Below are positions 4,501 through 53,343 of a stretch of DNA of 64,000 nucleotides, piece by piece (the stretch's first letter is position 1; the number at the start of each line of letters is the position of its first letter). Both the position numbers and the translations under genes were made by a program. Source of the stretch: Octopus vulgaris (lineage: Eukaryota). The stretch lies in the NCBI GenBank assembly GCA_951406725.2, contig OX597825.1, positions 41,664,001 to 41,728,000 of the forward strand, read 5' to 3'. The notes below the pieces were generated by a model. The model was given only the letters and a program-made list of their open reading frames with translations. It was not told the DNA's origin and did not search any database.

Positions 4501-5098
4501 ATGGGTATGTATGTATGTATGTATGTATGTATGCATGTATGTATGTATGTATGTATGTATAAGATCCCAGTAGGATAGAAAGATAAGATGTTTCCAATTT
4601 AGCACTCAGCCTGAGCTTTAGGCTATCTACAATGTTGGATTCTAGACTACTATTGAAAGGTGTAGAAAATCTAGGGTTTCATAACAGTAAAAATGTTATG
4701 TGGGTTTAGCAATACGTAAGATATAATCCAAATAATATGACAAAAAAAAACTTTAATATATCTTCAATGAACAGTTAGAGTTGTTTCTGTACAGGTCTGC
4801 TTTCATTGCCAGTTCATGCAAAAGTTCCAAGTGAAAATTTACATAATATTTGTGGTATTAAACATTTGAATGGCTTTTCCTCAGATCTGCTTCAAAGATG
4901 TGCTCTTAGATTATGTTACAATGTAAAGTATCTTTGATGCAGGTCTGAGGAAAAGCCACACTAATGTTTTAATACAGTGGTTCTCAACCTTTTCACTACC
5001 AAAGATACATTTATTTAAATTCCCTCAGACACCTAGTAATATGTTTCTCCTTATATAGATAGATAGATAAATAGATAGATAGATAGATAGATAGACAC

Positions 5099-5702
5099 AT
5101 AGGTTTAAGAAACAGAATGACATTCAAACAACTCAATCATCATCGAATGACATTATCCACACTATGCACATATAAGACTAAATATTGAAATTATCAAAAT
5201 TAATACCTACAATTCTTATTCCAAGTTATCAAAATTAATACCTTCAATTCTTATTTCAAATCATATACTTTAGTACGTGCGTTTCATGACAACATATTCC
5301 TCGATATTGCTGAAATAGAATGTCTATAAATACAATACCATATTAAAACGATTATATTGCCAATCTTCAGGTCTAGCATATATTAACTTATTTTGCTATT
5401 TACATCCTATATAAAGACTTGACAAACTAAAATTATATAACTAGAAGTTGTTAGAATAATTTTACTTTAGTAAATGATGAACAGAAATGTTGAATAAAAG
5501 TAGGAAGAATAAATGTTAGTAAAAAGAAATGTTAACTTATCTGTATGGTAATTTTCTCTCCATGAATTAAACATGGCTACCAGCAATCGTATAATCCTCC
5601 ATTAAGAGCTATATTTGAGGGGAGATAATTCTTATTAACGTTTAAAAGTTCTTGAAAGATATTTTCTATTTATGATAATAAATCAGGAGAAGCCAGAAGT
5701 GA
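5099..5702 (-). repeat. left arm of 604-bp inverted repeat (PLE pLTR-like, HHR-bearing)
   Basis: Near-identical reverse complement of 7706-8309; contains an HHR-like motif at 5271-5375 (minus). Confidence 0.92.
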
Positions 5703-6001
5703 TAGCATTATAATTATAAAAATAATAAGCAATGAGATTTTTACTGATTTTTACTGACTTTTACTCATTTCAAAATATTTTAAATATTTTAAAATTATAA
5801 GCTGAGTAATTTAGAAATCTTTATTATAGGCATATAGCTTCAATAGAGAGGGGACATAACAACACAAAACATGGGTACATATAACGAAAAATAACGAAAG
5901 ATGATTATGAAATGAAATATTTACAATGAATAGAATGGAATGGCTTATGAGCCCCACCAAAACTCGCAGTTTCATTTTACTGTTTATGAATACAATTAAA
6001 C

Positions 6002-7436
6002 TTATCCGGGGTATTCGTCCACTATGTATTCTAGCAGTTGCTTCTGCTCCATTACACTGGGAAAACTGTCATAACGTACATTGAGACTGATACACACAAT
6101 AGTACTTGGGAATAAATCTGTTAATCTTTCCACTGTTTCATACTCCAACAATACTGCTTTCATTTCATTGTCATGCATTCCAGGGTCTCTTATTAACCCT
6201 TTCCTTATCGCTAGTCTTTTTTTGATTTCTTTGTCTTTTAGGTAATACATCACTGCTCTAAAGTTCCTTCCTAAAGGTCTTCCTCCTTTTTACAAGCTTC
6301 CAGACGTTCCTCCACCCTTTTTATCCACTCTTCAATTTTCTCCTCCATTTGATCTTCAATTGATCTATCTGTTGCTTGTTTCACCTCCTGAGTTCGATTC
6401 TCTGTTGTCTCGGCAGCAGACTTCTTTTTTGCTTTTTTTCCTTTTTAGGTTTTTAGGTGGTGATTCTACCCGTGTTCGTTTTCTATCTTCCTTTTTCTCT
6501 TCCTCTTTTCCTTCCTTTTTCTCTCCTCTTTTTCTTCTTTTCTCTCTTTTTCTTTCTCCTTCTCTAGCTCGTCGTCTCTTGCCATGTTAACCATGGTCAT
6601 GAGCTCTTCTTCCACATTCAACTCTCTCGTCTTCAAGCTTTTTCCTTCATCTTCTTTCTCTTTCTCCGCTCTGACGTCTCTCGTGAATTCCTCTCAGGTC
6701 ATCTCTTCTTCATGTATCTCTCTTAGAGGGCACATTGCCTTCATGTGCCTTCTGTTTTTACACTTATAGCATACTGGAGGTCTCCCCTCCACCACGACTC
6801 TCAGTCGGGTCTCATCGGGGAGCACTAACTCATCTGAGATGTTGTGCAAATCTGGCAGGGTTATGTGTATTAGTGCTTCTACTGCATAACCCCACCAGTT
6901 AATATTGTTAGACTTCTCTACCTTGAGGATATCTACCTCTTCCTTACAATTATATATAATCGCTGCTACCAGTCTTTCTATGTCCATTTCCAGTGATACT
7001 TTACTGATTCGAACTCTCGCCGCTCGCCTACCACAGTGTGTAGGTATGAGTACCCACCTAGTTGTTCTTAATGCTGTTGTTGCATGTCTTCTTGTTTCTT
7101 CTTCGTTTTTGAAGCGTATTCAACTGTGGCGTACTTTCTCCCTCTAGTGTAGAAGGTGCTTCTATCCTTTGTCTTTTCTAGACACTGTTCTATCTCCTCT
7201 ATTTCTGCCACTTCAATTCTTTTTGTGGCTACATTCCTCGTTCTATAGGTTATTATCCTTTTTTCAGCTTTTTGAACTGCATCTTTTGACGGTGTGATTC
7301 TTAGACAGTCTCCCTCTTTTTTAAAGCTGTCAAAATATTTCTTAAGATTTTCTTTTTCAATTTTCACTTCCTTCAACTGTAATGCATCGGCACACAGGCT
7401 TTTGCCTGCTGCTCTCGCATAAGTCTCAGCTTGCAT
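6002..7436 (-). pseudogene. gag/ORF1-like nucleic-acid-binding protein with CCHC zinc knuckle (L1/Tx1 ORF1-like), disrupted
   Basis: ORF pieces 7068-7442, 6694-6987 and 6002-6253 join across frameshifts and stops. RLRVVVEGRPPVCYKCKNRRHMKAMCP is a CX2CX4HX4C knuckle in ORF1 context, followed by a K/E/R-rich tract. ATG at 7436, stop at 6002. Confidence 0.75.
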
Positions 7437-7705
7437 ACCCAACTGTGGGCAGCAGCAAAACAGTTTTCAAAAATTCAACAATCAATACAACGTTAAAAAT
7501 AACAGTTTTCAACAACAAATTTCAACTCACAATCTCATCACTGCACACTCTGAAAAACCAACATTCAACTTCACAGGTGGAAATATCTACAAGTTGAGTA
7601 ATTTAGTTTACCTATTTACTGACCTAGAAATTTATTATTTATCAAAGTTAACATATAAATAAAATAAATTAACCAAGAAAAAATAAAGACTATTCCATCA
7701 TACAC

Positions 7706-8309
7706 TCACTTCTGGCTTCTCCTGATTTATTATCATAAATAGAAAATATCTTTTAAGAACTTTTAAATGTTAATAAGAATTATCTCCCCCCAAAAGTAGC
7801 TCTTAATGGTGGATTATACGATTGCTGGTAGCCATGTTTAATTCATGGAGAGAAAATTACCATACAGATAAGTTAACATTTCTTTTTACTAACATTTATT
7901 CTTCCTACTTTTATTCAACATTTCTGTTCATTATTAACTAAAGTAAAATTATTCTAACAACTTCTAGTTATATAATTTTAGTTTTTCAAGTCTTTATATA
8001 GGATGTAAATAGCAAAATAAGTTAATATATGCTAGACCTGAAGATTGGCAATATAATCGTTTTAATATGGTATTGTATTTATAGACATTCTATTTCAGCA
8101 ATATCGAGGAATATGTTGTCATGAAACGCACGTACTAAAGTATATGATTTGAAATAAGAATTGAAGGTATTAATTTTGATAATTTGGAATAAGAATTGTA
8201 GGTATTAATTTTGATAATTTTAATATTTAGTCCTATATGTGCATAGTGTGGATAATGTCATTCGATGATAATTGAGTTGCTTGAGGGTGATTCGGTCTCT
8301 TAAACCTAT
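7706..8309 (+). repeat. right arm of 604-bp inverted repeat
   Basis: Reverse complement of 5099-5702. Confidence 0.92.
8033..8137 (+). ncRNA. hammerhead ribozyme-like motif (type I, long stem II); second copy at 5271-5375 minus
   Basis: CTGAAGA (8038-8044), stem II TGGCAATATA/TATGTTGTCA, then GAAAC-GCAC-GTA. Stem I is irregular (TAG/CTA, offset by 2 nt). Confidence 0.55.
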
Positions 8310-8402
8310 CTATATATATGTATATAATATAGTGAGTAGTACCACTAAATTGAACTTCTCTCCACTGTGGACTCAGAAATAACTTCTCTAATATTAATAT
8401 TA

Positions 8403-33700: not shown

Positions 33701-34109
33701 TAGAAGAACTTTTTGAACTCATTACTATATTATTTCCTCAACTCCTCTCTGTTTTGAACAGTCTGTCTCCTGTGATGCATTGTTGACTGCTGACATATGG
33801 AAGAGTGAAATAAACCATGTGTGATGTGGTAACTTCCCTTCTGGTTCTAGACAATCTTGTGAAATTTCATGTCACAAGTCAAAACCTTAGTAATTGCCAT
33901 TTTTTAACATAATGGCACTATAACTGAAACATGAACTTAGTGAATACAGAATACACTTGTGTTATATACAGCGGTAAGCCTAGCAGAAAATGGAACCTTA
34001 CTCTTACTGTTTTAGTGTTTTCAAGCATTTTATTTTACATGCTTTTTCTATGACTGTTTACTTCATGTTTCAACTAGCAATAACCACGCCTCGGATTTAC
34101 CTCATTGGC

Positions 34110-34442
34110 CATGGTACCGCCTCGAGCTTACGATCATTAGGTTGTGAGCTCGAATCCCGGACTGGGCTGCGTGTTGTGTTCTTGAGCAAGGCACTTTATT
34201 TCACGTTGCTCCAGTTCACTCAGCTGTAGAAATGAGTTGCGACGTCACTGGTGCCAAGCTGTATCGACCTTTGTCTTTCCCTTGGATAACACTGGTGGCG
34301 TGGAGAGGGGAGGCTGGTATGCATGGGCGACTGCTGGCCTTCCATAAACAACCTTGCCCGGACTTGTGTCTAGGAGGGTAACTTTCTAGGTGCAATCCCA
34401 TGGTCATTCATGACCGAAGGGGGTCTTTACCCTTTACCCTTA
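34110..34442 (+). mobile_element. tRNA-derived SINE (CORE/V-SINE-like)
   Basis: GAGCTCGAATCCC B-box-like head, then GTGTTCTTGAGCAAGGCACTT...CACTCAGCTGTAGAAATGAGT and a (TTTACCC) tail. Confidence 0.65.
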
Positions 34443-48811: not shown

Positions 48812-49083
48812 CGTATATTTGCCATTTCAATATGGCTATCCCTAAGGGTGGATGCTACTGTAGTTTTTAGCCCCAGGAGGACACACTCCTCCAGCTGGCC
48901 ATAGACACACTTTCTGTGTCCTGTCAGTATTTGCAAAGGGAAGTCATCCTTCCCGTCTTCAACTTATGATACACACGGACTCGAGTTTCGAGGTATTGAC
49001 CTCTCGTCAGCGTGTGACAATCATAGTTGTCACCGAGAATTAGATTTCCTTCACAAATACTTATACCTTTTCCAGCGTCCACT
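48807..49083 (-). mobile_element. 277-bp non-coding (TA)n-flanked unit carrying an HHR (solo pLTR or retrozyme-like)
   Basis: TA runs on both sides, no ORF, perfect HHR inside. Confidence 0.65.
48972..49016 (-). ncRNA. minimal type I hammerhead ribozyme
   Basis: Minus strand CACACG-CTGACGA-GAGGT-CAAT-ACCTC-GAAAC-TCGA-GTC|CGTGTG: all core residues, 6-bp stem I, 5-bp stem II, palindromic stem III, GUC cleavage site. Confidence 0.92.
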
Positions 49084-49844: not shown

Positions 49845-52800
49845 TATTGTTATATTTCGGAATGGTCATTTTGCCAGTTTAGCCAATAAAAACACACGCA
49901 CTATATATTTGGTGTTACTTTGCTTCATTGTTATTTATTTTTTACATTAATCTTAATCTTATTTCGGCTAGAGTTCTTTCGTCACACTCCTGTGACCGCA
50001 TCAGTGGTCATTTGTTTTCTTCTTTCTTATTTGTGTCTCTCCTTACTAACCGTCAGCCATTTTGTATTTCTATTGTATGTGTCTTCATTTGCGCATGCTT
50101 ATATCTCTATGTGCGTCTATGTTTATTTAGTGTGTGTGTGGGGGGATGCCTGTAATATTTGTATCTTCTGTTTATATACGTTCATGTAATTTGTTTTTGT
50201 TGTTGTTGATTTTGTTTATTCTTATTTTGTTCATGTGCTTACATCCACTTATTATTATCATTACATATGGTTGTATGTATGTATAACAACAATACTAGTA
50301 ATAATAATATTAAATCGAAAAAAAAAATCGAAAAAATAAATAAATAAAAAAACTCGAAAAAAAACAATATAGTTATTTATTTCTATTTGTTTATTTATCC
50401 GTGTATTTATTATGTTTTCGTGATCCTTTACCGTCATATGTTTTGGTGTGTGCTAGTGTTCCATTCTAGTTTCCTATTCAGGCTAGGTTTATTTTCTATT
50501 ATGTGTGTAGCTTCTGTAATTTGTCTGATTGTTGCATCTGTTCTATGTGTGGACAATATTTTAATTTCTATGTTGTTGATTGATCCCCCGTGTTCCTGTT
50601 CGGCGTGTTGGTACAGAATCGATGAGCTTTTACCTTCTTTGAGTTGTCTCCAATGTCCATTTACCCGCTCTCCTATGCTTCTTCTTGTTTCCCCTACGTG
50701 TGTCGTTGTCTTGTTACTGCATCATTCCTCTATACATCTCATACTATAGACTACATTTCTGGCTTTACAGTTTGTTTGTGGGCTAAATCTACATACAGTA
50801 CAGTACTTATCCGTACAGGGGGTTCTACTAAAAGGATAGGTTCTACCAATTATAGATTTGATAGGGTTACCTGGCTTTTCAACAACCTTAATCCTTAGCT
50901 TAAGTTTGTCTAGGGTCCTTCTAAAGCGGTACGCCAGTTCACCTCCAGGGGTGGTGTCAACGAACATGACACTCTGGTATTTATGGCTATCATGCCAAGA
51001 GTTGGCCTTCCCTATTTTCTTTTTTGTCCTTTCTATAGTGTTCCATGACTTGTTCCTATAGAGTGGGCAAATCCCATTCCTATCATTACATAATATATTA
51101 TCAAATTTCTTCATGGCTCCTTTGTATACTCTGATACTTTCTTTATGGCTGTGACCTGAGAACTGCGTGCGGTGAATGAAATATTGTATGTGTCTCTTTA
51201 ACTCTGTAGGCTCGCACATGCGTGACACATTTCTCATTATTCTGACGAAGTCTGCCATCAAAATATTGAATTTGGCATTGTCCACAATGGCTGAGTTCCA
51301 GTGGATCAAGTATTTTGAGGCCATAGGTTTGGCATAGTATGAATGAAGGATTTGGGTTTCATTATTCACAATTTCTAGCCAGAGTTCAGTGTCTAGTACT
51401 GGTAGTCTATGGTTGGGGTGTTTAGTGGGGTAGTCTATTGTGACCTTAATACTCTGGTGGATGGAGTTAGCTATTTGCTGGATGCTCTCCATAGTATTAG
51501 TTTCTATTACTATATCAACATTACTCTCTTGTGGGGGTGCCTTTACTACTATGTTGATATCATCAACATAGCGAGAGTACATGTTTACAAGTATGGAGTT
51601 CTGTGTTAGGCGTTCTTTAAGCCTTCTGTCCCACCATACCATGAAAAGGTTGGCCACATCACCAGCGATACTAACGCCGATGGCTGCCCCCTCGTCCTGG
51701 GCATATATTTTATTGTTACACTTAAACGTGTGGCCTTTTAGGGTAACTCTTATACTAGCTCCTAGTGCATGTGCGGTCATTTTCTTTACCTGATGGACAT
51801 TTGCGGGGCTCCGTATGGCTCTGGTTCATCCGCGCTATCTTTCTATATGTGTCTTCCTAGCCATAGAAGTAATTGTGGGCGGTCTACCTCTTGAACATCT
51901 ACTGGGGCAGAAACTACTAAGATTATGTTTATCTAGGTATTCATTGTTACATGTCAGTCTAAGTAGGAGGCCCAGTTCCTCTGTGTTGACATTACAGAAC
52001 TCCACCTGGCTCTCGTTGATCATCTCCACGCACTTCTCCACCGCAAAATCTACGTCGATCGATGGGTATAGGGATACCACATCCATGCTACCCACCATAC
52101 ATCCTGTCAGGTCACAAGTGTTGTTACAGTCAATGATCCTGCTGAGGAGATCTTCCGTGCTGTCACAAACATCAGGTGACATCCGGATTATAGGGCGTAT
52201 GATCATTGAGAGGAAGTAGGAGATTCTGTAATTGCTAGCGATATTCGCTCCACAGACTGGTCCTGCTATGGGGTCAGTGGTTACTTTATGGTCCTTGCGA
52301 AGTCCATACAGTGCCGGGATATCATTGTTCCAGGCTTGGAAATTATTTGCTTGTACGTTTCTGGGGTCCCAGAACAATTGTCTACATCATCATGTGGGCG
52401 TTGAGGACCTTTTCTCTCTCCTCATGCGCCAGTAAAGTTGTTATTTTTGTATTGGCGATATGAGGTTGCACTGCCTGGATGTAGTTCGGTAAGCTGTCTA
52501 TTGACATCCTGCCGGACTTATCTGTGGCAAGGCATACCACTTCTCCGTTCCTCGTGCGCTGAATGAGCTTACGTAGGCCACATGCAGGTTTAATCCCGAG
52601 TTGTTGGGCCTCTGTCTTATTCTGTCTCTTAGTGTGTAATCCTAAAATCTGTCTAAGTTTGGTCCTATAGTGAACTGTGCTTCCATATTGTCATTAGTAT
52701 GTCTTGGGATGTAGACTCTTTTGTTGAAGGGTAATGTCGTTGGATAAATCCGGCTCATGCAGTAAGATTTGTCACATACGTTGAAGAATTGAGTGTCAAA

Positions 52801-53343
52801 GGGGTGGGTATACATGTTAATGGCCTTTCTAGGGTTATCTTCATTACTGTTACTACTATTTCTGTCGTTACTGTTTCCATCATCAGCCTCCCTATTATTA
52901 TTGCCACCATTACCACTATCATTATTACCACTACTACTATTATTACTATTACCACCACAACTATCACTACTACCATCATTACTACTTCTACTGTTACCAC
53001 CACCACTACTACTACCACTATTATTGTTATTACCGTTATTCCTACCATTGCCATTATTGCTATCCTTCTGATTATCGCTAGTGATATTTTCATTGTTCCT
53101 GTTTCTGGTGTATGTGTTGTTCATATTAGTGTTGGAGGAAAGCACCATTGAAAAGTGTCTTGGTGCGACTATGAAAGATATCTAACAAAGGACCACAGGA
53201 GTGTGACGAAAGAACTCTGACCGAAATAAGATTAAGATTAATGTAAAAAATAAATAACACTGAAGCAAAGTAACACCAAATATATAGTGCGTGTGTTTTT
53301 ATTGGTTAAACTGGCAAAATGACCATTCCGAAATATAACAATA
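49845..53343 (-). mobile_element. near full-length PLE with inverted pLTRs
   Basis: 150-bp inverted repeats at 49845-49994 and 53194-53343. HHR-like CTGATGC-G-GTCACA-GGAG-TGTGAC-GAAA on minus at 49977-50004. Confidence 0.88.
50434..53148 (-). pseudogene. PLE RT plus GIY-YIG polyprotein, disrupted
   Basis: TDKSG, LYGLRKDHK, SMDVVSLYPSI, YAQDEGAAIG, RYVDD, PVLD, YAKP, NCKARNVVY...HVGET...H. Several frameshifts and an in-frame TGA at 50722. Confidence 0.9.

Follow-up and report, generated by a model that had tools for sequence, protein, structure and literature searches.

A dead ORF1-only LINE nested in a Penelope-like element of Octopus vulgaris, and a possible start-site targeting rule for its family

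In a 64,000-nt stretch of the Octopus vulgaris genome (the window), a reading frame enclosed by near-identical inverted repeats at 5099–8309 had been interpreted, in a preliminary description, as one non-autonomous gag-only retroelement. We find that the locus consists of a dead ORF1-only long interspersed nuclear element (LINE) that landed in the 3′ end of a Penelope-like element (PLE) to which it is unrelated. The nesting of the two elements and the ORF1-only status of the LINE's family are very likely. The window copy itself is dead and ordinary, and the locus leads to an ORF1-only LINE with a likely position-based targeting rule. As a whole, we consider it probable that the family is copied in trans by a partner LINE with an APE endonuclease and a reverse transcriptase (RT), and that both insert at transcription start sites.

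Results

Two nested elements at the window locus

The inverted arms pair 5083–5711 with 7697–8325 (629 nt, 95% complementary) and are real as first delimited, with 19 mismatches in 604 positions between 5099–5702 and 7706–8309. Between them, the reading frames bore out an open reading frame (ORF) on the minus strand from ATG 7436 to TAA 6002, spread over three frames, with frameshifts near 7119, near 6289 and in the linker and three in-frame stops in the middle frame: a dead copy, as had been proposed. The zinc knuckle, at 6727–6774, matched Pfam zf-CCHC (E = 0.064 for the window fragment and E = 0.0009 for an intact relative), and the reading frames of the interval between the arms confirmed that it holds no RT, endonuclease or ORF2 frame.

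Arm and ORF were used separately as queries against the genome they came from, giving 48 matches for the arm (40 of 455 candidates scored) and 40 for the ORF (40 of 219 candidates scored); loci drawn from that genome are labelled L followed by a number. The site is empty in six of the eight other repeat loci (L004 and L006–L010), where the sequence of 5707–5814 is continuous with sequence from ~7588. The remaining two are truncated short of the insertion point, the ORF is present in none of the eight, and the arm repeat is present in none of the 19 other ORF loci, so that the co-occurrence of ORF and repeat with the same junctions, which had been suggested as a check, was not seen. The ORF lies in an element of its own (5815–7590, minus strand, 1,776 bp) with the same boundaries in other copies, flanked by a 16-bp target-site duplication (TSD; 5799–5814 and 7591–7606, one mismatch between copies) whose sequence is single at the L004 empty site. 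Given the empty sites, the absence of the repeat from other ORF loci and this separate TSD, the ORF and the repeat do not form a single unit here.

The supposed 5′ leader is consequently divided between the ORF element (7437–7590) and the PLE (7607–7705), as is the supposed 3′ sequence of ~300 bp (5815–6001 and 5707–5798, respectively). Of the proposal that an ORF1 is carried here by PLE signals, the identity of the parts stood, namely Penelope-like arms and an L1/Tx1-type ORF1 without ORF2, and the single unit did not. As to the timing of insertion relative to arm duplication, the 19 differences in 604 positions between the arms stand beside 20 private changes in 740 columns for the window ORF copy.

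Upstream of the repeat, L004 and L009 hold coding sequence for a GIY-YIG endonuclease end (in L009, E = 0.0011 at 19.6 bits, below the 22.6 cut-off). Related frames of 830–860 amino acids (aa) exist, among them an 852-aa ORF that is 59% identical across the GIY-YIG region and shows RT-like motifs by eye, with no Pfam RT match. The host repeat also has an inverted 5′-truncated copy and microsatellite flanks, as described for PLE insertions in PMC8557442. On these sequence grounds, GIY-YIG sequence upstream and an inverted 5′-truncated copy at microsatellites, the arms are an ordinary PLE remnant, the 3′ part of such an element. In view of the GIY-YIG sequence and the variable inversion points, a DIRS element or a DNA transposon was dropped as the source of the inverted repeats.

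Each arm had also been said to bear a hammerhead-like motif, which we could not recover. Scanning for the pattern CTGANGA..GAAA gave no match within the arms, and Rfam reported no hammerhead family there, although Rfam is insensitive here and missed real retrozyme hammerheads too. With 36 hammerheads of this genome we trained a covariance model, which is hence family-biased. It did not match the arms at E ≤ 10; as a control, it scored a real hammerhead elsewhere in the window, at 48959–49024, at 49.6 bits. What the arms do contain is GAAACGCACGTA at 8123–8134, a fragment resembling a minimal stem III, with which no CUGAUGA core or stem I was seen. Nor was a hammerhead found in four PLE loci.

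The family encodes ORF1 only and is under purifying selection

Assignment of the window ORF as an L1/Tx1-type ORF1 is supported. Its intact relatives are 431–463 aa long and were predicted by AlphaFold to consist of two RRM-like domains, the CCHC knuckle, a disordered acidic/basic linker and a compact C-terminal domain, which is family-specific, of predicted alpha/beta type and confidently modelled (pLDDT 87). No clear structural match to this last domain was found (best Z 5.3, rmsd 3.0 over 67 residues; Foldseek E > 0.01). A PDB sequence search with ORF1 matched the zinc knuckle and nothing else, and a word-indexed protein search with an intact ORF1 gave no match; a HMMER profile search did find homologs, the named ones being from Octopus and Argonauta. 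Selection on the ORF, another of the checks suggested, was evident among 19 intact ORFs: dN/dS was 0.14–0.27 over residues 1–240, with dN below dS in all 110 usable pairs (of 171; the pairs are not independent, and intact copies were chosen for the analysis), and 0.35–0.66 over the C-terminal domain.

Searching the genome at the protein level (150 of 10,106 candidates scored) placed many of the scored matches in open frames of 430–490 codons and some in head-to-tail arrays with a 1.8-kb period. A family 3′ end lay 1.2–2.6 kb downstream (median 1,564 nt) for 107 of 125 detected ORF starts; the other 18 lay at a locus edge, were interrupted or had an end that was not called, and two of these were spurious matches in loci of the partner LINE introduced below. 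ORF2 sequence was matched in seven of 146 loci searched, and only in L122 did it follow the ORF in sense orientation. L122 was rejected as the missing ORF1–ORF2 parent, its junction being a one-off common to none of 39 other matches. The sequence at L122:2097–3290 derives from a different, abundant L1/Tx1-type LINE, of which it is a 5′-truncated copy with a similar 3′ terminus; it has 39 other matches at 92–93%.

The 3′ untranslated region (UTR) of the window copy ends in AATAAAGATTT without poly(A), and the same or a similar sequence ends most sub-lineages. Family copies stop at AATAAA plus a few bases, many are 5′-truncated, and TSDs, with a mode of 18 bp, were called in 70 of 150 ends; the TSDs and truncated copies point to LINE-type copying. 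These data support a true ORF1-only (HAL1-like) mobile family under purifying selection, as opposed to a deletion product. Other ORF copies with a normal ORF2, foreseen in the preliminary description as a sign of a one-off nested insertion or deletion, were accordingly not the rule, and that argument does not apply because the family is a true ORF1-only one. The window copy's sub-lineage includes many dispersed, apparently untargeted copies, and the window copy is probably an off-target or weakly targeted insertion of the family.

At least two further ORF1-only families occur in the same arrays. Stacked members were seen at L074:92–1504 (−), L159:466–1791 (−) and in L073, and are ~31–40% identical to the window-ORF family in the N-terminal half.

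A partner LINE shares the 3′ end and the targets

In one array, L064, an ORF1 homolog precedes the beginning of an APE domain. Full copies of this partner are ~5.4 kb long and encode a CCHC ORF1 and a 1,140-aa ORF2 (Exo_endo_phos, RVT_1 and zf-RVT). The partner's 3′ terminus resembles that of the family, with a hairpin and ATAATAAAGA, and partner and ORF1-only copies are interleaved with the same target duplications in L064, L142, L143, L151 and L154. Since the two share a 3′ end and targets, the partner likely copies the family in trans. It shows the Tx1-clade features of a CCHC ORF1 and an ORF2 with APE, RT and a C-terminal zinc motif; the Tx1 label that we provisionally apply to it reflects domain content and target preference, and the RT homologs retrieved carried no clade names.

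Insertions lie at a constant spacing from promoter-like motifs

A hammerhead-like core lies 20–40 nt past 68 of 165 distinct family 3′ ends, compared with 161 of 5,000 (3.2%) random windows. The hammerhead stems covary (two-sided changes in 9 of 11 pairs; 93% of cells paired against 20–54% in slid controls), and the hammerheads belong to short units, arranged in tandem or inverted, that lie at (TA)n, which identifies these targets as retrozymes; non-LTR retrozymes, LTR denoting long terminal repeats, carry type I hammerheads (PMC7229834; bioRxiv 10.64898/2026.07.22.740005). Many other family 3′ ends directly adjoin either an LTR-like promoter or the next member of the family, at its 5′ end.

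Junction sequences vary widely, and the spacing to promoter motifs is constant. After removal of six mis-called TSDs and two tandem sites, 62 sites in 26 groups were analysed. Of the 17 target groups made up of full-length copies, 14 had a TATA-like 7-mer starting at −36 to −21 (9 of the 12 that are not retrozymes); the background was 17.8%, and neighbouring windows gave 2–3 of 17. At 24 of 38 retrozyme-type sites, an ATCAGT[GC]-like motif, which we take to be the proximal sequence element (PSE) of small nuclear RNA (snRNA) promoters, was positioned −53 to −60 from where the TSD starts; three further sites had it at −65 to −69.

Within retrozyme units such as those of L079, L064 and L143–L148, an ATCAGTG motif is spaced as in U1 and U2 promoters and accompanied by a TATA-like box. 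This spacing suggests snRNA-type promoters in animal retrozymes, of which we found no mention in the accessible portions of the retrozyme literature searched. At L069:3839 and L164:2842 (oriented), ~30 nt including a TATA-like box are duplicated with the element, longer than the usual tag or duplication.

Junctions at the known start sites of U1 and U2 genes

In L156, the partner's 3′ end is fused directly to U1 sequence, at position 1 of the Rfam model. L149 has a partner copy lying between, on one side, a U2 promoter with a duplicate of U2 +1 to +14 and, on the other, a complete U2 gene, and L150 has the same U2 promoter and tag. The ATCAGT[GC]-like motif occurs at −56 to −59 in 36 of 38 U1 copies and at −57 to −61 in 27 of 30 U2 copies. 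One ORF1-only copy, L022, has the first ~20 nt of U1 at its start, as would be expected if its parent copy had been transcribed from a U1 promoter.

Within the U1 cluster at C18:49.00 Mb, L158 contains stacked, decayed pieces of the partner LINE with U1-like 13-nt tags at the junctions. A second type of U2 promoter, likewise with an ATCAGTC motif, was seen in a 1.75-kb tandem array (L197–L203 and L206).

Discussion

A model of start-site insertion and its alternatives

We propose that element RNA coated by its own ORF1 protein would recruit the partner's ORF2 through a shared 3′ motif (TGTCC..AATGTCCC, a hairpin and ATAATAAAGA). Relative to a promoter, the first nick would be placed at about −5 to +1, or at about +7 to +10 in one sub-lineage, and the second some 14–21 nt beyond it. 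The element would then lie behind the host promoter, and the host transcript's first bases would become a 5′ tag. Because each insertion would recreate the start site, later copies could stack head-to-tail. ORF1 might be tethered to the initiation complex, a guess by analogy with TRE5-A of Dictyostelium. Promoter borrowing with 5′ tags, and the standing of the retrozyme and TATA sites as true start sites, are what we infer from sequence.

In its broadest form, to which we lean by a modest degree, the model holds that an octopod LINE lineage inserts within a few bases of +1 and parasitises unrelated promoters of the snRNA or TATA type, and that its long-lived ORF1-only satellites keep ORF1 as a targeting or packaging factor. 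Such a rule would also account for two features of Tx1-Mar and SINEU elsewhere, their U1/U2 heads and their dissimilar hot spots, and it would make insertion sites a guide to promoters, among them an snRNA-like promoter in animal retrozymes.

Several observations weigh against this model. With 27–29% identity to the partner's ORF1, the family's ORF1 falls in a clade of its own, which means that the partner did not recently give rise to it. The snRNA-gene junctions belong to the partner and not to ORF1-only copies; the sole U1 junction (L156) has no upstream duplicate, no insertion at +1 was seen in 39 other U1 copies, and the three U2 junctions (among 30 U2 loci) are all in one cluster and may not be independent. 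As the U1 and U2 queries were full genes, internally interrupted copies would rank low. The window and strict motif list of the TATA analysis were chosen after the sequences had been seen, and 5 of its 17 groups are related retrozymes. Dispersed 5′-truncated copies, mostly of the window copy's sub-lineage, gave no clear TATA signal, with a match in 4 of 9 by the loose and 1 of 9 by the strict definition, and the window insertion site itself has only a loose match in AT-rich DNA. The family sample is the 150 scored among 10,106 protein candidates, and TSDs went uncalled in 80 of 150 ends.

The alternative that fares best, though we judge it unlikely, is an ordinary HAL1-like element with several sequence-specific sub-lineages (for retrozymes, LTRs or itself), the link to start sites being a by-product of targeting short, promoter-bearing repeats, or of survival or sampling of full-length copies there. 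A Tx1-clade preference for particular repeats and snRNA genes is known (PMC4494074), most targeted copies lie in related retrozymes, and the dispersed truncated copies appear untargeted. Such specificity sits poorly with junction sequences that differ widely while their distance to TATA- and PSE-like motifs stays fixed, and with a single partner lineage found both in retrozymes and at U2 +1, where it carries a leftover retrozyme-like tag.

It is less probable still that the +1 junctions were made at the RNA level, by an RT that, having run off the capped 5′ end of U1, U2 or retrozyme RNA, switches to the element RNA at its 3′ end. Template jumping has been proposed for the U1/U2 heads of crocodilian SINEU and Tx1 (PMC4494074), and would suit the U1 case, which lacks an upstream duplicate or promoter; in L149, L150, L062 and many retrozyme sites, however, an untranscribed promoter and a duplicate of the first bases lie upstream of the element, which requires insertion into DNA at the site.

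A single non-autonomous unit of ORF1 gene and Penelope inverted repeats, mobilised by PLE machinery as first described, is very improbable, since the ORF and the repeat occur apart at every other locus compared, a separate TSD and 3′ end mark off the ORF element, and neither the pattern scan nor our covariance model found a hammerhead in the arms, even though both window arms share 18 substitutions relative to other copies, allowing a single passenger copying of the locus. Something close to the preliminary description probably does occur as a side route: in 4 of 161 oriented loci (L026, L058, L095 and L096) an inverted duplicate of the element's 3′ end and the adjoining retrozyme lies upstream and ends in (TA)n, a PLE signature, and because of these loci PLE machinery likely does at times carry a composite of ORF1 element and hammerhead-bearing retrozyme.

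Relation to known retroelements

Returning to the start-site model, ORF1-only LINEs and target-specific Tx1 elements are each already known. HAL1 proper is a poly(A)-tailed derivative of mammalian L1. Such non-autonomous derivatives, with ORF1p only, have arisen several times in mammals (PMC5753468). The octopus family likewise encodes ORF1 only; it differs from HAL1 in its CCHC-type ORF1, lack of poly(A), several old ORF1-only lineages, tandem arrays and strong target preference. In Dictyostelium, TRE5-A.2 is an ORF2-deleted, ORF1-retaining form of TRE5-A.1 mobilised in trans, and position-specific insertion near a start site is ascribed to ORF1 binding TFIIIB (PMC3159450). The octopus family resembles it in retaining ORF1, lacking ORF2 and probably taking a start-site-related position, with trans-mobilisation presumed. 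The insertion sites of TRE5-A lie ~50 bp upstream of Pol III tRNA genes, and its short form is a deletion copy of its partner, whereas the octopus elements lie at about +1 of likely snRNA-type or TATA promoters, with the promoter upstream, and the two ORF1s are as divergent as stated above.

HeT-A of Drosophila, a Gag/ORF1-only element, forms head-to-tail arrays, has its promoter outside the copy and carries 5′ tags. It is telomeric and makes no TSD. The octopus family shares with it the ORF1-only, head-to-tail arrangement and probably the external promoter and 5′ tags, but is interstitial and has TSDs of 13–22 bp. Keno inserts inside U2.

More broadly, the Tx1 clade (Keno, Kibi, Koshi and Tx1-Mar), with SINEU, offers APE-RT LINEs that prefer repeats or snRNA genes and insert in tandem, as the partner does; Tx1-Mar and SINEU have U1- or U2-derived heads, with two dissimilar hot spots in one transposon (PMC4494074). 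The targets described there are defined by sequence, no start-site rule being proposed in its accessible text, and the non-autonomous partner is a short interspersed element (SINE), whereas in octopus it is an ORF1 gene. Ty3 of yeast also inserts at transcription start sites (PMC6673722), but is an LTR retrotransposon with an integrase that uses Pol III genes. The fixed distance that marks start-site-targeting retroelements is seen in the partner at U1 +1 and U2 +1, in few and possibly non-independent events. The inverted 5′-truncated copies at (TA)n of the host repeat and target repeats resemble those of PLEs and non-LTR retrozymes (PMC8557442, PMC7229834), which here are landing sites and not the carrier of the ORF1 element.

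A recent O. vulgaris repeat annotation names L1-Tx1 and Penelope families but, in its accessible part, none of the features described here (PMC13282606), and the accessible part of a gastropod LINE survey holds nothing bearing on these elements (PMC11203168). In the literature searched, which did not extend to Repbase and most subscription journals, we found neither this family nor any LINE that targets Pol II or snRNA-type start sites by position. If the rule holds, it would give a testable reason for the retention of ORF1 in non-autonomous LINEs, a DNA-level origin for snRNA-headed elements and a first handle on the transcription of animal retrozymes. It would also represent natural promoter-directed integration, in which the host gene is left intact downstream but severed from its promoter.

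Features of the window

Coordinates are collected in Table 1.

Table 1 Features of the nested locus and of a separate retrozyme unit in the window
Feature	Position	Strand	Basis
Left arm, inverted 5′-truncated copy of the Penelope-like 3′ region, abutting (TAGA)n	5099..5702	−	Repeat comparison; structure as in PMC8557442
Penelope-like 3′ UTR, upstream half of the interrupted site	5707..5798	+	Continuous with 7588 onward in L004, L006–L010
Target-site duplication, 3′ copy, 16 bp, one mismatch to 5′ copy	5799..5814	+	Sequence; single in the L004 empty site
ORF1-only non-autonomous LINE, 1,776 bp (154-nt 5′ UTR, ORF1, 187-nt 3′ UTR)	5815..7590	−	Boundaries as in other copies
Broken ORF1	6002..7436	−	Intact relatives of 431–463 aa and predicted models
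CCHC zinc knuckle	6727..6774	−	Pfam zf-CCHC match
Target-site duplication, 5′ copy	7591..7606	+	Sequence
Penelope-like 3′ UTR, continued: right arm (7706–8309) and ~90 nt, ending at (TA)n	7607..8400	+	~90 nt common to L003, L005 and L010
Hammerhead of an empty retrozyme unit, outside the 5099–8309 unit	48959..49024	−	49.6 bits, E = 1.2e-12, covariance model R1

The hammerhead at 48959–49024 is of type I and looks intact, and its empty retrozyme unit, which resembles those used as targets by the family at other loci, lies between (TA)n runs. A U4 snRNA match at 34005–34134 on the minus strand (53 bits), with a degenerate 3′ half, is probably a pseudogene. Finally, positions 49845–49994 and 53194–53343 form an inverted repeat pair of 150 nt, 97% complementary and 3.2 kb apart.

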